Origin: a phage
Length of the DNA stretch: 64,000 bases
Sequence record: PZ445521.1
Reading direction: 5' to 3' (one strand)
Numbering within the stretch: position 1 is the stretch's first letter; every line of letters starts with the position of its first letter. The translations under genes were made by a program, and so were the position numbers. The notes under the pieces were generated by a model, which saw only the letters and a program-made list of their open reading frames with translations, made no database searches and was not told the origin of the DNA. Positions 4,876-58,225 of this stretch are shown one piece after another.

Positions 4876-4894
4876 TTTCTGTTCCTCCGTAGTT

Positions 4895-4935
4895 GATAGG
4901 GTAATAGTACCACGGAAGAACAGTCTTGTAAACAA
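4895..4935 (-). promoter_or_regulatory. early promoter cassette
   Basis: tgtaaa 4927-4932, atagta 4904-4909, 17-bp spacer. Confidence 0.55.
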
Positions 4936-5118
4936 CTTTTTTAAAAATATTCGTAATAAATGTGAATACCAATCACTACTGCCGAAACTTGTGCAACCAA
5001 CCATGCACACGCAATAAGTACAGAATTCAAAATTTTCATAATAACCTCATCACAAAAGTAAATGTTAAACAAATTACTGGAATACTAATTAACCAAACAA
5101 AACACCACCATAATGAAC

Positions 5119-6023: not shown

Positions 6024-6285
6024 TTAGACTTTCCTTTTTACCGCTGAGATAAGCGTTATATACTTTAAGAGTGCCATAATAAATTCGGTCATTTTCATCT
6101 AAAGACTCGCGGTCAAGTTCATCGAGCTCCTTTTTATCCATGACTATAACATCATTACAGTAAAGAAACCCAAGTTTTTCGTGACCAAACTCAAATTTAT
6201 TACAGTACACAATATTAGCGTGATGATTTCCGTGCAGTTTAATCTCTTTTATGTCGGAATCACCGATATTCATACAATAAATCAT
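5956..6285 (-). CDS. hypothetical protein, 109 aa
   Basis: ORF track; 3-prime end overlaps denB start by 68 nt. Confidence 0.5.
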   Translation of the reverse strand: MIYCMNIGDSDIKEIKLHGNHHANIVYCNKFEFGHEKLGFLYCNDVIVMDKKELDELDRESLDENDRIYYGTLKVYNAYLSGKKESLNAENESGFTETISDSDIYPIEQ

Positions 6286-6294
6286 AATTTTTCC

Positions 6295-6317
6295 TTAAAA
6301 CAAAAGGGCCGAAGCCC
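6295..6317 (-). terminator. tetraloop hairpin with U-tract
   Basis: gggccgaagccc at 6306-6317 (GGGCUUCGGCCC on the transcript) followed by a U-run. Confidence 0.5.
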
Positions 6318-6323
6318 TTTATT

Positions 6324-6518
6324 TTACTTGAATTGTGCAATTCTTTTCTCTAGACATTCAGCATAAGATTTCATTGAGATGAACTGTGAAAGCAGCAGTT
6401 CTTGCTCAACTGCACTAACTGTTAGAAACTTTGCGCTTTCTAAAAATTTACTCAGTGCATTAATTTTGAGCATTAATTGATCGTATTCTTCTTTTACTCG
6501 TGCTTGATAACCTAACAT
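6324..6518 (-). CDS. hypothetical protein, 64 aa
   Basis: ORF track; between rIIB and denB. Confidence 0.5.
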   Translation of the reverse strand: MLGYQARVKEEYDQLMLKINALSKFLESAKFLTVSAVEQELLLSQFISMKSYAECLEKRIAQFK

Positions 6519-13585: not shown

Positions 13586-13609
13586 GTTATTTTCTGTATC
13601 AGTAGTTGA

Positions 13610-13648
13610 TATTGATATAGTACCATAATCAACTACTGATGTATATAG
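13610..13648 (-). promoter_or_regulatory. early promoter cassette variant (weak -35 TATACA) with flanking inverted repeat
   Basis: atagta 13617-13622; 17-bp spacer; cagtagttgat ... atcaactactg inverted repeat flanks the -10. Confidence 0.45.
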
Positions 13649-13670
13649 TTTTATGAAAAAATTTTAAACT

Positions 13671-23572: not shown

Positions 23573-23773
23573 ATGGTACAAAAATTAATGGCACTTGTTG
23601 ATGCCATAAAAGGTAATAAGAAACGTATAGCTTTTACTATTTCTGCTATGGTAGGAATTTTACTCTGGAACTTTATTCTATCACCTGTTGCGATTGCACA
23701 TGGTATTAATATTCCAGTAGTTACTCTTGATACATTCGTAGATTTAGCATTTGCTTTAGTTGGGTTAATTTAA
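23573..23773 (+). CDS. small membrane protein, 66 aa (plus strand)
   Basis: AAGGAGGA Shine-Dalgarno 4-5 nt before ATG; two hydrophobic helices; stop overlaps primase stop; only well-supported plus-strand ORF in the window. Confidence 0.4.
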   Translation: MVQKLMALVDAIKGNKKRIAFTISAMVGILLWNFILSPVAIAHGINIPVVTLDTFVDLAFALVGLI

Positions 23774-24798
23774 ATCTTGGCATATTTAGATAGCCGCATT
23801 TTAGCCATCAACCCCTGGGCAATATTATTTTTCATATATTCCATAATTTGTTCAGTGGTTGCACCTTCCTTTCTAATCATATCATTAACATCTTTTGATT
23901 TCCAGGGAGATTTATCCCAAAACATAACCCTTTCTCCTGCATCAACTAATTTAGTCATTCGCTTAATAGTGTCAGGATGACGAGGTTCATTATCTAAAAC
24001 CCACACACGTCTATCTTTAAATGGAACAACTTCTAGGTCTAATTGACCACCCGTAATAGCTATACCATTTTCAATAAAAAGTGAATCTATAGGTCCTTCT
24101 AGAACATATACATCACCATCTTTAACTCGTTCTACTCCATAGATTTTTGTTGCCTCAGGATAAGCTTTGATGGTGATATATTTTTGAGGAGCATCTTTCT
24201 TTAATGCACGTCCTTGAAAAGACTCAGCTTTTCCATTAGCATTATAAATTGGAATAACAAGACGAGGCTCAGAAATTTCCTTTTTATATGTTCCCGGTGC
24301 TATACTATTAACTAATTTAGGCCATTCGGTTGTAAACCAAAGATATTTCCATTTATCCTTTGGAATACAACGAGCTTTTACGTATTTTATAATTGGATGG
24401 TCTTCCGCCAGTTTATCTAATCTAACACATGACGGAAGAGATTTAATTATTTTCTTCTCAGGTTGTTTAGGAAGTTCTTTAGGTTTTTCTACTGGACGAC
24501 TTTTACCTTTTTCTTTTCTTATTTCAAAGATATACTCACGATATAAATCAGGTTCAAACTCCTTTAAATATATTCCGATTGGTGCATGATAGTTACAGTT
24601 ATAACAATGAATATTTCCTTCATTATTATCGCCATAATACCATCCACGAGCTTTATTCTGGTCGGTTTTTGAATCTCCACAAACAGGGCATCTAAACCGT
24701 AATTTAAAAGTTGAACTATTATTTACTTGTGTGAATTTAGGTAAATGGGCTAATGCACGATACGCAAACTCATTATCAATCCAAGGTATTGATGACAT
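23770..24798 (-). CDS. 61: DNA primase gp61
   Basis: 342-aa ORF, same length as T4 gp61; zinc ribbon CPVCGDS ... CYNC; TOPRIM-like EGPIDS / LDNE. Confidence 0.9.
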   Translation of the reverse strand: MSSIPWIDNEFAYRALAHLPKFTQVNNSSTFKLRFRCPVCGDSKTDQNKARGWYYGDNNEGNIHCYNCNYHAPIGIYLKEFEPDLYREYIFEIRKEKGKSRPVEKPKELPKQPEKKIIKSLPSCVRLDKLAEDHPIIKYVKARCIPKDKWKYLWFTTEWPKLVNSIAPGTYKKEISEPRLVIPIYNANGKAESFQGRALKKDAPQKYITIKAYPEATKIYGVERVKDGDVYVLEGPIDSLFIENGIAITGGQLDLEVVPFKDRRVWVLDNEPRHPDTIKRMTKLVDAGERVMFWDKSPWKSKDVNDMIRKEGATTEQIMEYMKNNIAQGLMAKMRLSKYAKI

Positions 24799-24800
24799 TT

Positions 24801-24965
24801 TTACTCTTCTTTTTCTTTAGATTCCTCTTTTTTCTTTTTAGGAATCTGTTCAGGACCTTTATTTACTACAGCACCTGATGTTGTTCCAGTAGAGATATTT
24901 TCAGGATTACCACCTGAATCTCCAGCAACCATATCTTCTTTAATAAATTCTTTATATGTTTTCAT
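24801..24965 (-). CDS. hypothetical protein, 54 aa (61.1-like)
   Basis: Read from DNA: MKTYKEFIKEDMVAGDSGGNPENISTGTTSGAVVNKGPEQIPKKKKEESKEKEE; TAATATG junction with upstream gene. Confidence 0.5.
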   Translation of the reverse strand: MKTYKEFIKEDMVAGDSGGNPENISTGTTSGAVVNKGPEQIPKKKKEESKEKEE

Positions 24966-24966
24966 A

Positions 24967-25323
24967 TTAACCTCTATTCATAAAAGCATTAAAAATTTGG
25001 TCATCAATAGATGGCGCAGTAATATTTTCTGCATCATTTAGCAAATCATTAATTTCATCGGATAGCATAACACATGTACCTTTATTTCCTGTAATTGTTA
25101 CTGCACAATTACGAACGTTTTCTTTATCAAATTTTAGGTTAATATTTTCGTAGTGAAAATCCTTTAATGCCGAATATATCTTTAAAATGAAATTGTCTTT
25201 TACTACAATAAACCCAACCTCACTATTAAAACGCGGTTCATGGAAACTGTAATAAACCTTTTCATCTATAAAATCGTATGAAATTTTTTCCATTTTTAAA
25301 TATGAAAATTCAGAACTATACAT
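24967..25323 (-). CDS. hypothetical protein, 118 aa
   Basis: ORF track; C-terminus SIDDQIFNAFMNRG encoded by the duplicated junction cassette. Confidence 0.55.
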   Translation of the reverse strand: MYSSEFSYLKMEKISYDFIDEKVYYSFHEPRFNSEVGFIVVKDNFILKIYSALKDFHYENINLKFDKENVRNCAVTITGNKGTCVMLSDEINDLLNDAENITAPSIDDQIFNAFMNRG

Positions 25324-25324
25324 A

Positions 25325-25957
25325 TTAACCTTTATTCATAAAAGCATTAAAAATTTGATCGTCAATAGAAACTTTTACTTTAGGCTGTTCTTCAAACGGT
25401 AATTCATATCCACATATTACAATTTTGTGATCGATACCAAAATACACAGAAGCAATATTATTAATATTATTTTCAGTGAAATCTAAATCAACATCAATAT
25501 CTTTTTGACTAACGCTCAAAGGATAATTAATACGAATAATTCGATTATCTTTAACAAAGATTCCACCGACATACTCTGTGCTGCGTTTAAAGTTTACACG
25601 TTTCCTAAATGAAAAATATTCAGGTTCTTTATGGGCTCGACTCATAGGGCTTAAAGTGTATTCCGAATATGAAATATCAAATCCTACACCTTCAATATGA
25701 GCCAAAGTATCATGATTAAACCAATTATAATCGTATGCCAAATCCATTAAATTGTAATATGTGAAAGGCACCGGATTAACATCATATGTTGTACCTTTAA
25801 AATCTGCCCAGGCAACGATTTCGTTATCTTTAACAATTACAAAAATTGTGCCAATAAGATATCCACGGTTATTTTCATCAGGTGTTATATTATAACATTG
25901 TGCATCAGGAAATTTACCGTATTTAAACGGTGGATTTTTGTGCATATAATAAATCAT
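25325..25957 (-). CDS. hypothetical protein, 210 aa (61.2-like position)
   Basis: ORF track; length close to T4 61.2; C-terminus SIDDQIFNAFMNKG. Confidence 0.6.
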   Translation of the reverse strand: MIYYMHKNPPFKYGKFPDAQCYNITPDENNRGYLIGTIFVIVKDNEIVAWADFKGTTYDVNPVPFTYYNLMDLAYDYNWFNHDTLAHIEGVGFDISYSEYTLSPMSRAHKEPEYFSFRKRVNFKRSTEYVGGIFVKDNRIIRINYPLSVSQKDIDVDLDFTENNINNIASVYFGIDHKIVICGYELPFEEQPKVKVSIDDQIFNAFMNKG

Positions 25958-25958
25958 A

Positions 25959-26252
25959 TTATTCGCCTGTGATTTCGGTTACGATATTTTTGTTATTAAA
26001 GTTTTTATCGCAATACAGAACATAATTATACTGCATTACACCACCAGACTTAAGTTGTTTTTGCACTTCAGCTTTCATTTCAGGACGATCGCGCTCAACG
26101 ATATTCATAATATCCGCTTCAATTTGAGTTTCAACTTCAGTCTGATCTGCAGTCATAGACCATTCACACAAATCTTTATCATATCCTGCCATAGCAGGCT
26201 GAGCAGCACAAGAAGCCAAAGTAAAAATTGTAGCAAAAATAAATTTTTTCAT
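25959..26252 (-). CDS. sp: Spackle periplasmic protein
   Basis: 97-aa ORF with signal peptide, recognised as T4 Sp. Confidence 0.8.
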   Translation of the reverse strand: MKKFIFATIFTLASCAAQPAMAGYDKDLCEWSMTADQTEVETQIEADIMNIVERDRPEMKAEVQKQLKSGGVMQYNYVLYCDKNFNNKNIVTEITGE

Positions 26253-26312
26253 GATAATCTCCTCAGTAGTTTATGTTTATATAGTATCTCAATTTCCAAC
26301 AAAAGTAAACAG

Positions 26313-26570
26313 CTATTTTAAAACTTCTGCGTAATCACATGTTACAAACTGTTTCTCTAGCTTAACGATTTTACGAAAATACCTTTTATACTGACGAATC
26401 TGCCTCTTCGTAGGACGTACAGCAAACTTAATAAATTCCACTCGACCAAATGGAGGACTTTCTTCTGCTGGAATATCTAGCACCAATTCCCACGTATCTG
26501 CAATAAGTGCTTTGAATTGAGTATTTTTCCTGACGTTATACGGAGTAGGTTTAAATAAAACAATATGCAT
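26313..26570 (-). CDS. hypothetical basic protein, 85 aa (61.4-like position)
   Basis: ORF track; immediately upstream-adjacent to dmd. Confidence 0.55.
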   Translation of the reverse strand: MHIVLFKPTPYNVRKNTQFKALIADTWELVLDIPAEESPPFGRVEFIKFAVRPTKRQIRQYKRYFRKIVKLEKQFVTCDYAEVLK

Positions 26571-26571
26571 A

Positions 26572-26754
26572 TTATCCTCGGCAATCTACTTCACATACTT
26601 TCTTGTCATCAATGAAAGCTTTAACTAATGCTTTATTAACTTCAGCATATTGAGTAGTAGCCCATTGAACGTCATCTTTCATCATTGTGGTTTCTTTAGT
26701 AAACATGCTTTCATTCTTAAACCACCCCATAAAAACTACCTTTACCAATTCCAT
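26572..26754 (-). CDS. dmd: Dmd antitoxin (inhibitor of host RnlA/LsoA)
   Basis: 60-aa ORF MELVKVVFMGWFKNESMF..., recognised as T4 Dmd; early promoter upstream. Confidence 0.8.
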   Translation of the reverse strand: MELVKVVFMGWFKNESMFTKETTMMKDDVQWATTQYAEVNKALVKAFIDDKKVCEVDCRG

Positions 26755-26777: not shown

Positions 26778-26815
26778 AAGACTACTATACCATAGTCTCG
26801 TCAGCTTGTAAACTA
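26778..26815 (-). promoter_or_regulatory. early promoter (-35 TTTACA, -10 TATAGT)
   Basis: tgtaaa 26807-26812, actata 26784-26789, 17-bp spacer; lies just after gene 41 stop. Confidence 0.55.
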
Positions 26816-28240
26816 AAATTTTAATTCATTCGCCAAAGCATCTAACTGAGCTCGAGTGGATTCATTTCTTTGATAGCGATTCTGCTCAGCCTGAATCTGT
26901 TGTGAACCTGCTACTTCACTCACTTCAGTTGGAGTAGAATCTTGTTCGATTTCTACCCATTTCTGATTTCCCTTTTGAACACCCATCAAAAACTTATTCC
27001 ATTTATTTTTATCACCATATCGTGATTTGATTTGCTTAATGAGTTGTTGTTCAGCAGCTGCTAACTCCTCGGTTTCAATGACCGCAAGCATAAAATCGGC
27101 TGTTGCTGGAAGACCGGCAGATTCTGCAATATCGCTCATGTTAACATCGGAAGAGTCCCAAGCTTGTTTACCAACCTGTGCTGCAGTCCAAAGAACAGTT
27201 TCGGTTTCAACAGCAAGAGCACGCAATTCCTCTGCAATAGCTTTAACAGTTGTGTAACTATTTTCTGAATAAACTCTAATGCGGCAAGATTTACAAATAC
27301 CCAGATAGTCGACAATAATGATTGTTGGAACAAAATTCTTCTTAAGCTTCAATTCGTTTAAAAGTGATCGAAATGTATTAGCATCTGCTCCACCAGTAGG
27401 ATACTGTTTAACGATTAAACGACCGAGAGTAGATTTCTCGCGCCATTTTTCCATTTTTCCTTTATACTCAGCGTAAGAAATATGCCCATCATCAATGTCA
27501 TCAAGAGAAACATCAAGCATGTTAGCGTCAATACGCTTAGCACAGACTTCTTCTGCCATTTCCATGGAAATGTAAAGAACATTATGTCCGAGCTGTAAAT
27601 AATCTGCCGCTAATGAACACAATCCTAATGATTTACCAACGTTAACGCCAGCCATTAAAACGTTCAGTGTTCCAGTTTCAGCTCCGCCTTTAGTAATTTT
27701 GTTTAGAATTCTGAGTTTAAATGGAACCTTACGAGCTTTATTCATATAAGATAGCCAACGCGCTTCATAGTCATCCATCCAATCATGACCAACGTAGCTA
27801 TCAAATGAAATTGATAATGCTTGGCGCATGATGTCAGGAATAGCACCTACATCTGGCATTTTCTTATTTCGTTTTTCCGGAGGAAGCTCAGCATTAGTTT
27901 GAATTTCGATTATTTTAGACGTAGCATTAAACATCGCCCTTTGCTGAACATATTTTTCTGTTTCTTTTACTAACCAGCTGTGGTCTTCTGGAGAATCAGC
28001 CAGTTTTGAAATAAGTGTTTTTACACCAGAATATTCTGTTTCAGTAAATGAACTATTTTCTAATGCAACATTTAATGCATTAATAGATGGAACGCTATGA
28101 TACTCATTAACATGAGATTTAATTAATTTGAATGTATTTTTAGCTGGACCACTTTCAAAATATTCTGAATCCATATATGGCCAAACTTTTGAAAAATAAG
28201 CTTGATCAAATATAAGATGAGAAAGAATAATTTCTACCAC
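26813..28240 (-). CDS. 41: replicative helicase gp41 (DnaB-like)
   Basis: 475-aa ORF, same length as T4 gp41; Walker A GVNVGKS. Confidence 0.92.
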   Translation of the reverse strand: MVEIILSHLIFDQAYFSKVWPYMDSEYFESGPAKNTFKLIKSHVNEYHSVPSINALNVALENSSFTETEYSGVKTLISKLADSPEDHSWLVKETEKYVQQRAMFNATSKIIEIQTNAELPPEKRNKKMPDVGAIPDIMRQALSISFDSYVGHDWMDDYEARWLSYMNKARKVPFKLRILNKITKGGAETGTLNVLMAGVNVGKSLGLCSLAADYLQLGHNVLYISMEMAEEVCAKRIDANMLDVSLDDIDDGHISYAEYKGKMEKWREKSTLGRLIVKQYPTGGADANTFRSLLNELKLKKNFVPTIIIVDYLGICKSCRIRVYSENSYTTVKAIAEELRALAVETETVLWTAAQVGKQAWDSSDVNMSDIAESAGLPATADFMLAVIETEELAAAEQQLIKQIKSRYGDKNKWNKFLMGVQKGNQKWVEIEQDSTPTEVSEVAGSQQIQAEQNRYQRNESTRAQLDALANELKF

Positions 28241-32465: not shown

Positions 32466-32494
32466 TTTATTCTCCAAATCCGTATCAGTAGTTG

Positions 32495-32533
32495 ATAGTT
32501 GTATAGTACCATGGAAGAACATTCTTGTAAACA
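32495..32533 (-). promoter_or_regulatory. early promoter cassette
   Basis: tgtaaa 32525-32530, atagta 32502-32507, 17-bp spacer; conserved leader and Shine-Dalgarno. Confidence 0.6.
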
Positions 32534-32613
32534 GTTTTGTGAAAATTTTTTAGGGAATTCTAAATGTCCAGAATCATCTGTTTTTCATAAGTATAGATTT
32601 ATATTACTTGTAT

Positions 32614-42279: not shown

Positions 42280-42312
42280 ATATCATTATATCAAACTCCG
42301 TATAAAGCTAAA
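42280..42312 (-). promoter_or_regulatory. middle promoter-like (AGCTTTA, 12 bp, TATAAT)
   Basis: Plus-strand taaagct 42303-42309 and attata 42285-42290. Confidence 0.5.
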
Positions 42313-42324
42313 GGGCCGAAGCCC
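42313..42324 (-). terminator. tetraloop hairpin downstream of alpha-gt
   Basis: gggccgaagccc at 42313-42324, U-rich flank. Confidence 0.5.
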
Positions 42325-42325
42325 T

Positions 42326-43528
42326 TTATTTTGTAATAATGTCAAACTGTTCTTTAAAGCAGAAGCTTGAATCTTGATGCTGATACAAAAATTCATATGC
42401 TTTTTCTCGCTCACGGTCATAAAGAGCTCGGTCAGATGACAGTTCTTTAATACGCTCGAATGTTGATTCCATGTCATTTTCATCAAACCAAATGATACCG
42501 CTATCATGCGAGGTCAAAGGAGTATTATCAACACGGAATTTTAAATTTTCGCCAGTAGATTTCCAAAATACCGGAATTGTTCCACATGCACCAAGCTCGA
42601 GATGAGTATATTCTAAAGAGCGCTGTAGATATTTTTTATCCAACTTACTCAACTGATAACCAAATCCGGATTTACTCATACGTTCAAGCATTTCGCTATT
42701 TACATAACGATCGAGAATTTGCGTTGGTAAATTAGGAGCAATTTTAATTTGGTCTACTTGATGAAGACGATAATACTCGTATGGAATTCCTTTTTCTTTA
42801 ATAGGAATGAACGCTGGAGAACGTTCCAGACCTTCCATAATAGTACTTAGTCCTGCAGGTTTAAGATGTTTTTCATGAAAATCAAACATCTGATAAAAAC
42901 CTTTCCATGTAGTCGTACGACCAATCCAACGATTGATATTCATGTTAATTTCAGAAACATCTTTCCAGTAGGTTGACCGAACCTTCGCAATATCCATAGG
43001 AGGCTGAAAGTTATATACTGTCGGTGCTTCTTCAATATCATCAAACAGAGAAACTGTTTCAGGATACCATTCTTTCATCAGAACTTTATTAAAATCACCA
43101 TTATCAGAATGGCTAAAAATAACATCAGCTCGACGAACAGTTTCTTCTAATCCCAAATTTCGGCGCAAAGAAAGAGAAGAATGGTCATGTTGATAAACTA
43201 CAACACGAACAGAAGGTTTAATGTTATCAATAATTTTTTTATAGTTATTAATAGTGTCTTCTTCAACCGAAGTAGCAGGAACTGAATTGATAATTAGAAT
43301 ATCACAATCATTTACCAGCTTAAGTGTTTTATCGTATTCTTTTGCCAATAAAACCGGAATTGAAAATGATTTATAATCATGCGCACAGTTACGAGTAAAT
43401 GATTTATCTTTGGCATAAACCAAAGTTACTTCATGACCATTTTTAATAAACCAATCACGTTGCTCAAGAGAAAATTTAGTTACACCGCAACCTTCAAGAC
43501 CTCGAGCCATAAAAATACATACTTTCAT
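42326..43528 (-). CDS. agt: alpha-glucosyltransferase
   Basis: 400-aa ORF, same length as T4 alpha-gt; sequence recognised. Confidence 0.88.
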   Translation of the reverse strand: MKVCIFMARGLEGCGVTKFSLEQRDWFIKNGHEVTLVYAKDKSFTRNCAHDYKSFSIPVLLAKEYDKTLKLVNDCDILIINSVPATSVEEDTINNYKKIIDNIKPSVRVVVYQHDHSSLSLRRNLGLEETVRRADVIFSHSDNGDFNKVLMKEWYPETVSLFDDIEEAPTVYNFQPPMDIAKVRSTYWKDVSEINMNINRWIGRTTTWKGFYQMFDFHEKHLKPAGLSTIMEGLERSPAFIPIKEKGIPYEYYRLHQVDQIKIAPNLPTQILDRYVNSEMLERMSKSGFGYQLSKLDKKYLQRSLEYTHLELGACGTIPVFWKSTGENLKFRVDNTPLTSHDSGIIWFDENDMESTFERIKELSSDRALYDREREKAYEFLYQHQDSSFCFKEQFDIITK

Positions 43529-57850: not shown

Positions 57851-57871
57851 TTTGTGTTCCTCCGTAGTTGA

Positions 57872-57910
57872 TAGTTGTATAGTACCACAGAGGAACGGTC
57901 TTGTAAACAA
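57872..57910 (-). promoter_or_regulatory. early promoter cassette
   Basis: tgtaaa 57902-57907, atagta 57879-57884, 17-bp spacer. Confidence 0.6.
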
Positions 57911-58225
57911 CTAAAAGAAACTTCTTTCACAATTTTTTCCACTGAACCACGCACTCACTGCTTTCTTAGTCTCAGGAGCAGTGTTATCCATAAACCATTC
58001 AAAGGCAGCCTTTTTATGATTCTGGAGGGCTTCTCGGGCTTTAATCTGCTCACGGTCTATTAACACTAACATATGAGCCTTTCTTGTCACCATGGGCTTC
58101 TTATGATTTTTTGAATACTCCCAATCATTTGTCCATCGCATCGTTGTTGCGAACTGAAATACAGCTTCTTTAATTTTAGTTTCGTAAATTTCACGAGCCT
58201 TTGAGTATAACATCACTACCTCCAT
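57911..58225 (-). CDS. hypothetical protein, 104 aa
   Basis: ORF track. Confidence 0.5.
   Translation of the reverse strand: MEVVMLYSKAREIYETKIKEAVFQFATTMRWTNDWEYSKNHKKPMVTRKAHMLVLIDREQIKAREALQNHKKAAFEWFMDNTAPETKKAVSAWFSGKNCERSFF

Follow-up and report, generated by a model that had tools for sequence, protein, structure and literature searches.

A 49-nt direct repeat at two adjacent gene junctions of phage PZ445521.1 combines the conserved C-terminal motif of apparently paralogous anti-defence genes with what looks like a standard coupling junction, and appears to serve secondarily as a recombination linker. It exists because two adjacent genes of one family, adfA and a shorter relative encoding 118 aa, share the motif and, at an identical and very short stop-start junction, each give way to the gene that follows. 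In our judgement the fuller account is probably correct as well; in it, the family motif of these two anti-TA-island genes would dock on a partner, and the repeat would ease loss and gain of the cassette between its copies. The original prediction had offered a footprint of recombination or a translational-coupling module. Both are real but secondary aspects of the feature, and its main cause, a shared protein family, had been missed.

The repeat and the two genes that carry it

The window, by which we mean the whole stretch of 64,000 nt that was analysed, is a segment of a Tequatrovirus genome. Copies of the repeat lie at 24963–25011 and 25321–25369, 358 nt apart from start to start, and are identical at 46 of 49 positions, which bears out the near-identity first noticed at these junctions. 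The earlier start lay 2 nt too far to the left and the length had been given as 47 nt, but the rest of that description was correct. A search of the window with one copy, allowing up to 3 mismatches, returned these two sites only, and no such pair appeared in 100 dinucleotide-preserving shuffles of the window, the chance expectation being none.

Each copy, on the minus strand, comprises the 14 final codons of one gene with its TAA stop, then a single base, then the start codon ATG of the gene that follows. ORF positions agree with the earlier claim that each copy spans a stop codon, a Shine-Dalgarno (SD) sequence and the next start codon, and place the SD in the last two codons. Copy 1 encodes the end of the 118-aa protein, SIDDQIFNAFMNRG, with TAA at 24969–24967; past a 1-nt spacer, gene 61.1 begins with its ATG at 24965–24963, and the SD of copy 1, GAGG, lies inside codons AGA-GGT. 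Copy 2 encodes the end of the 210-aa AdfA protein, SIDDQIFNAFMNKG, with TAA at 25327–25325; here too a 1-nt spacer follows, the 118-aa gene begins with its ATG at 25323–25321, and the SD is weakened to AAAGG. One of the three differences between the copies (24974/25332; mRNA AGA vs AAA) replaces Arg with Lys, and the other two (25000/25358 and 25003/25361) are synonymous changes in Asp codons. The 27-nt segment encoding the core of the tail, DDQIFNAFM, occupies 24979–25005 in the 118-aa gene and 25337–25363 in adfA.

All genes of the locus are on the minus strand. In order of transcription they are gene 41 helicase (26813–28240), dmd/61.5 (26572–26754), tifA/61.4 (26313–26570), sp (spackle; 25959–26252; Pfam T4_Spackle, E 6e-45), adfA (T4 gene 61.2; 25325–25957), the 118-aa gene (24967–25323), which is the cassette between the two repeat copies, gene 61.1 (54 aa; 24801–24965), the downstream neighbour of copy 1, and gene 61 primase (23770–24798). 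Gene 41, dmd, tifA and gene 61 were identified from their ORFs and from annotated relatives, which show the T4 gene order at this locus; sp forms the conserved left flank of the variable slots. Both AdfA-family genes lie between sp and 61.1, in the dmd-tifA-adfA stretch that is called the 'anti-TA island' in 10.1101/2022.04.14.488369. Over the 1.6 kb compared, 24700–26300, the window and Shigella phage JK38 show 100% identity. The interval is matched by 665 T-even-type phage records, and 127 phage records contain at least 80% of this 1.6-kb locus in a single match, consistent with the whole arrangement.

AdfA (anti-DarT factor A, T4 gp61.2; reportedly LeRoux et al. 2022) is one of a small number of phage proteins known to inhibit the DarTG defence system. 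The Pfam profile PF23813 has a curated gathering cut-off of 27 bits. The 210-aa protein reaches 461.7 bits across the whole profile (E 3e-139), and the 118-aa protein 31.9 bits (E 1e-7) over profile positions 113–211 only. BLASTP aligns the latter with AdfA residues 111–210 at 37% identity (E 6e-11). The two-half architecture of AdfA (~208–216 aa) is present in the 210-aa protein and absent from the 118-aa protein, a single domain that matches the C-terminal half. The short gene is assigned to phrog_4122, as against phrog_3781 for AdfA, and is annotated 'hypothetical protein' in the records listed. Its dN/dS against orthologues is 0.08–0.31 (0.011/0.131 vs T2; 0.13/0.425 vs the Sf21 allele). 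By these sequence measures the 118-aa ORF is a real gene under purifying selection and a short, unnamed, one-domain variant of the AdfA family.

Most of the similarity between the two proteins comes from the tail. As had been claimed, they share the 14-aa end, with 13 of 14 residues the same and one R/K change, and differ in their bodies: pairwise alignment gives 39 of 42 identical nucleotides in the tail, as against 24 of 86 residues and 42% of nucleotides in the rest. When the last 16 residues were removed, hhalign still related the short form (class B below) to the C-terminal half of AdfA (P 8e-5, probability 60%) and, with tails removed, to the N-terminal half (P 5e-4) through a G-x-I-x-V-K-D-N-x-I motif, while BLASTP of tail-less bodies (E ≤ 1e-3) keeps the body classes apart. 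These comparisons show that the bodies of adfA and the 118-aa gene have diverged almost past recognition.

Conservation and predicted structure of the tail

All ORFs that end in the motif were gathered from three sources (annotated phages, IMG/VR, metagenome contigs), and gave 24 distinct tail DNA sequences. The bodies that precede them fall into three classes: A, AdfA itself (208–216 aa); B, the short form (117–125 aa); and C, a protein of 145–146 aa from Gaprivervirus-type phages with a PHROG of its own. Throughout the 24 haplotypes and all three classes, the DDQIFNAFM core carries 0 nonsynonymous changes, and synonymous variation is found at 6 of its 8 degenerate codons. An invariant core peptide written in synonymously varying codons points to strong selection on the peptide and not on DNA or RNA, and by this measure it is shown that protein-level selection keeps the core constant. 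The three final residues, (N/K)(R/K)(G/D), are variable and carry the SD of the next gene. Between orthologues of the 118-aa gene, tail dN is 0–0.03 and tail dS 0.34–0.69, the latter of the same order as body dS, and body dN is 0.15–0.49. To judge from these alignments, the tail is the most conserved protein element of the AdfA family. A conserved tail is not mentioned in the passages on AdfA that were consulted in PMC11257639 and 10.1101/2022.04.14.488369.

The tail is present in several Tevenvirinae genera (Tequatrovirus, Mosigvirus and Gaprivervirus-type phages). A HMMER scan of 1.84 billion representative proteins gave five true clusters only, all of them ending in the tail, and added three short-form clusters to those from a word-indexed protein search, which had returned close relatives only. 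Two further HMMER matches (P0024 and P0025) were discarded on inspection as spurious repeat-rich eukaryotic proteins. None of 185,579 bacterial and archaeal species genomes contains the tail pattern, PDB sequences lack the motif, and no PDB relative was found. With close relatives the only true matches of the protein searches and the pattern missing from bacterial genomes, we rejected both a wider family and mimicry of a host protein. To our knowledge, the DDQIFNAFM tail does not fit the sliding-clamp-binding consensus (QL[SD]LF or T4 gp45 type).

Outside the tail, class C has no detectable sequence similarity to class A or B. With tails removed, hhalign compared it with class B at P 0.015, and Foldseek matched the 118-aa model to the class C protein at E 1.9e-3 with TM scores of 0.57/0.47, a borderline result that links C to B by fold only. 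Weak homology between tail-less bodies, together with this borderline fold match, makes transfer of the tail onto unrelated bodies possible.

The AF2 model of the 118-aa protein (pLDDT 82) consists of five strands followed by a helix, one more strand and a second helix. Confidence is ~90 over the core (residues 8–100), below 50 in a linker (102–105) and ~50 in the terminal helix (106–115). The model of AdfA (pLDDT 68) has two beta-rich halves and the same pattern of low-confidence linker and tail helix. The alignments behind the two models are shallow (8 and 13 sequences), and the low pLDDT may reflect this shallowness. In family alignments the linker before the tail varies in length by up to ~10 residues, and within the tail the hydrophobic residues I, F, F and M stand at i, i+1, i+4 and i+5, an amphipathic pattern. 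A weakly predicted linker of variable length followed by a low-confidence terminal helix suggests that the tail may be an amphipathic helix held by a tether, with which the protein docks on a partner that is itself conserved.

It could instead be an ordinary structural element, the final helix of the domain, which would pack into the hydrophobic core and be conserved because folding requires it, as the amphipathic pattern and the helix predicted by AF2 would allow. Yet the helix and its linker have pLDDT values of ~50 or less beside a core at ~90, the linker is not constant in length, and conservation is far higher in the tail than in the core against which it would pack. The tail is also carried by the class C body, which lacks detectable sequence similarity to the others. 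We regard a purely structural role of this kind as unlikely.

The docking model can be set beside what has been described for AdfA. According to PMC11257639, AdfA binds DarT1, a single body change in the RB69 protein, R164H, switches binding on, and residue 164 sets specificity; binding and neutralisation of a DarT toxin are known only for RB69 AdfA(R164H) and related alleles. In our alignment the AdfA protein of the window has Asn at the equivalent site. Toxin binding by AdfA and its control by a body residue lead to a model in which specificity would come from the variable body, and the tail, which does not vary, would touch a conserved site. The tail would be a short amphipathic helix on a flexible linker, and its most likely partner would be a conserved surface of the neutralised toxin, much as type II antitoxins have C-terminal segments that fold on binding. 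The variable body would set toxin specificity, and AdfA and its short relative together might widen the range of toxins countered. It is possible, and we put this forward tentatively, that DDQIFNAFM is a portable docking helix of fast-evolving T-even anti-toxin proteins (AdfA, the 117–125-aa form and the 145-aa form), and that it binds a site which does not vary, either on the toxin (DarT-type ADP-ribosyltransferases) or on a partner from phage or host that these proteins have in common. Bodies would then be interchangeable for specificity, the 118-aa protein would be a second, independent counter-defence factor, and the coding repeat would double as a recombination linker with which cassettes are swapped, dropped and amplified.

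A different origin for the repeat would be a recent recombination or gene-conversion event that copied the junction from one gene end to the other and left a peptide of no function. Identity drops sharply at the 5′ edge of the repeat, from 93% to 42% of nucleotides. Between the adfA and 118-aa tails of the window, 11 of the 13 codons for identical residues are the same, slightly above the codon-usage expectation (P 0.035), and some homogenisation at the DNA level may thus add to selection on the protein. A synonymous variant, GAC-GAT, is shared by the adfA tail of the window and the tail of the Sf21 short gene, which is compatible with exchange between copies. A comparison by hand of within-genome and between-genome pairs, on small samples, showed no difference that would indicate concerted evolution of the tails. 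Against a recent copying event, the core peptide is the same in several Tevenvirinae genera and in all three body classes, although its codons show synonymous variation; the paralogous tails of ECML-359 differ at four synonymous sites and encode the same core; and orthologous tails have dS of the order of body dS with dN near 0. The synonymous/nonsynonymous pattern largely refutes this reading, which we consider improbable. What stands of the recombination footprint first proposed is that cassette breakpoints fall inside the repeat in two lineages (see below); the repeat itself, found as it is in several Tevenvirinae genera, is old and not a recent scar.

The junction and cassette loss and gain

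Beyond the codons of the tail, the repeat consists of the stop-start junction. Both copies have the form TAA-T-ATG, with GAGG or AAAGG 5 nt upstream and the SD inside the upstream ORF, and the sp-adfA junction uses the same TAA-T-ATG. Among the 24 tail haplotypes the stop is TAA in 21 (TGA and TAG also occur), the spacer is T in 23, and the SD appears as GAGG, AAAGG or GAGA. In every tandem Tequatrovirus genome sampled, the SD is weakened in the copy that precedes the short gene, where AAAGGT or AGAGAT takes the place of AGAGGT. The last ~13 nt of the repeat (purine-rich SD, stop, one base, ATG) look, from their sequence, like a translational-coupling junction, and the earlier proposal of a coupling module holds for this portion only, no conserved RNA structure having been found.

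The stronger form of that proposal is that all 49 nt are conserved as an RNA coupling or regulatory module, such as a hairpin that hides the SD, with the peptide as a by-product. The nearly constant stop, 1-nt spacer and ATG and the purine-rich SD within the last two codons would agree with it, as would a hairpin in copy 1 that pairs CCAUCUAUU with AAUAGAGG and covers the SD. This hairpin is no better than shuffled sequences (z −0.85), however; copy 2 lacks it (z +1.7), and other haplotypes do not preserve it. Folding revealed no conserved or significant RNA structure in either junction or in the 24 tail haplotypes, and none that conservedly masks the SD; third codon positions of the core vary freely while the amino acids are fixed, and the SD itself varies. 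With folds neither significant nor shared among haplotypes, we rejected an RNA-level explanation as the main cause, and hold the module reading to be improbable too. The repeat also contains no promoter-like match above background and no terminator signal. That the repeat is an assembly artefact can be dismissed, although it did cause a misassembly in one public record, phiD1 (adapter remnant, Ns). The same arrangement occurs in independently sequenced phages and metagenome contigs (the 127 records above; L027, L028 and L035), and the absence from every related genome that would have pointed to an artefact was not observed. Neither ORF is disrupted, and purifying selection acts on the short gene.

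Among related phages the two genes occur together and each on its own. Both adfA and the short gene are present in the window, RB68, Sf21, EC.W5-4, L027, L028 and L035; adfA occurs without the short gene in T4 and KRT47; and T2 has the short gene only, in the order sp-118-61.1 with no adfA, preceded by a possible 14-nt vestige of a tail, TAGAGGTTAGTATG. Record counts derived from tblastn are ~158 with both genes, ~141 with the 118-aa gene only and ~330 with adfA only. Two adfA alleles, window-type and T4-type (73% aa identity), occur before the same short gene.

KRT47 and T4 correspond to EC.W5-4 minus exactly one 358-bp unit and are otherwise nearly identical to it over the locus, and the single tail that they retain is chimeric, as a crossover within the repeat would make it. 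A parallel case is found in Gaprivervirus-like loci. L008 and L009 have the order C-tail, class B, B-tail, next gene, and L017 is L009 minus the class B cassette, with the C-tail placed directly before the next gene. In both comparisons (EC.W5-4 vs KRT47/T4; L009 vs L017), the variants differ by one repeat-flanked unit and one repeat is left. These alignments show that the repeat copies coincide with the breakpoints of short-gene presence and absence in two phage lineages. A slot-1 gene followed by class B is common to Tequatrovirus and Gaprivervirus-type phages, which indicates that the duplicated tails are old.

T4 amplifies and deletes segments at microhomologies of 6–10 bp in the same island, according to 10.1101/2022.04.14.488369. 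Since T4-type recombination proceeds even at 6–10 bp of homology, a 49-bp repeat should be an efficient substrate, and would make the 358-bp cassette easy to delete or duplicate. Natural genomes were seen with 0 or 1 copies of the cassette, and none had an array of two or more genuine copies; an apparent duplication in phiD1 was rejected as the misassembly noted above, with its Illumina adapter remnant and Ns. The breakpoint evidence supports a part for the repeat in recombination, which would be a consequence of the shared tail.

Implications and comparison with known systems

The only invariant part of the AdfA family is a nine-residue C-terminal motif that is predicted to be detached from the body. 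A half-size relative of AdfA in the same island, T2 included, adds a candidate counter-defence gene. T2 is described as naturally without an adfA homolog in PMC11257639; should the portable docking helix be confirmed, this statement would need revision, and the short gene that T2 carries may change how T2 and T4 phenotypes are read against each other. Gain and loss of a tail-bounded cassette in two lineages provides a clear natural example of a coding repeat that doubles as a recombination linker in a phage anti-defence island. These findings are an incremental, testable addition and do not overturn current views.

Compared with AdfA, its closest known relation, the 118-aa protein keeps the helix of the R164H site (AdfA TENNINNIAS aligned with DKENVRNCAV) and the C-terminal tail. 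It is above the Pfam cut-off and its gene adjoins adfA in the same island; unlike AdfA, it has one of the two beta-rich halves and a PHROG of its own, and its place in the family is assigned from sequence.

Phd, CcdA and RelB are type II antitoxins with C-terminal toxin-neutralising segments. The proteins described here resemble them in ending, as small toxin inhibitors, in a flexible linker and a short helix. They differ in that no relation of sequence or fold was found and in that the specificity mutation of AdfA lies in the body; contact between tail and toxin is here proposed by analogy.

Short repeats at gene boundaries have reportedly been described in T4-type phages by Arbiol et al. in 2010 as PeSLs, mobile regulatory cassettes that consist of intergenic early promoters with a stem-loop. 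The likeness is that such repeats are proposed to mediate modular shuffling of T4-type genes. The repeat of the window differs in being coding, with no promoter-like match above background and no significant hairpin, and we rejected its identity with a PeSL or promoter cassette, which would be intergenic and combine an early promoter with a stem-loop. PeSL-like promoter repeats of the window belong to other families (D1–D3) with different sequences.

A further parallel, in the same island, is the dmd-tifA 'accordion' of Srikant, Guegler and Laub (2022; 10.1101/2022.04.14.488369), in which a unit is likewise gained or lost between direct repeats and one chimeric repeat is left behind. The repeats of the accordion are chance microhomologies of 6–10 bp, whereas the repeat that bounds the 118-aa cassette is 49 bp long, coding and old.

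Copies of the tail junction

The two tail copies, each comprising the shared last 14 codons of a gene and its stop-start junction with the next, were compared at their Shine-Dalgarno sites (window 25328-25333, before the 118-aa gene, versus 24970-24975, before 61.1). In all tandem Tequatrovirus genomes sampled, which carry both adfA and the 118-aa gene, the site before the 118-aa gene is weakened (AAAGGT or AGAGAT), whereas AGAGGT is retained in the copy before 61.1. The weakened site may lower expression of the short gene.

Phage T2 contains TAGAGGTTAGTATG between the sp stop and the 118-aa gene start (2489-2503), and this stretch agrees with the 3′ end of a tail junction at all but one of 14 positions. 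It may be what remains of an upstream tail-bearing gene that was deleted. An extra copy of the 118-aa gene in Yersinia phage phiD1 (NC_027353, 2485-2680) contains a remnant of an Illumina adapter, GATCGGNNGANCNNANNTNTGAACTNNAG, as well as Ns. We rejected this second copy as spurious, a misassembly in the RefSeq record that was induced by the repeat.

Window-wide, families of 6–8 dispersed repeats of 70–77 nt each were also observed. These resemble the early promoter regions of T4 (GTTTAC...TATAGTACC, opposite strand), with examples at 1738-1814, 4879-4955, 13592-13668, 32478-32554 and 57854-57930. Neither they nor the repeated terminator-like hairpins, for example at 6280-6324 and 42287-42331 (AAAGGGCCGAAGCCCTTT) have any relation to the 49-nt repeat.

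Variation in adfA and a TifA-like cassette

Window-type and T4-type adfA diverge most in their first ~57 codons, within a region that covers the 5′ part of adfA and the 3′ end of sp (window 25780-25990). Because the final ~25 nt of sp change together with the adfA allele type, the left boundary of allele replacement lies inside the sp 3′ end.

A 73-aa ORF beginning MFVLTQFSK follows the tail in three Gaprivervirus-like IMG/VR contigs (L008, L009 and L017). It encodes a paralogue of the ToxN inhibitor TifA (61.4; 49 aa align at 41% identity with window 26313-26570, E = 2e-13). This is another variable anti-toxin cassette of the dmd-tifA-adfA island. ECML-359 lacks the cassette, and AATATG bounds the deletion.

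By alignment, residue 167 of the window AdfA (25325-25957) is Asn (TENNIN-N-IAS), at the site equivalent to R164H of RB69 AdfA. His occupies this site in T4, RB68 and KRT47, and Arg in the RB69-type protein cluster P0018. DarT1 is neutralized by RB69 AdfA with His at this position but not with Arg (PMC11257639).

Gene 61.1 downstream of the repeat

Gene 61.1 lies at window 24801-24965 on the minus strand. In Mosigvirus, a ~155-aa protein (phrog_2086) has a C-terminal third made up of 61.1-like sequence. The gp61.1 N-terminus, MKTYKEFIKE, closely resembles MKTYQEFIAE, the capsid targeting sequence carried by the T4 internal proteins IPI-III. On account of this resemblance, gp61.1 might be packaged and injected.
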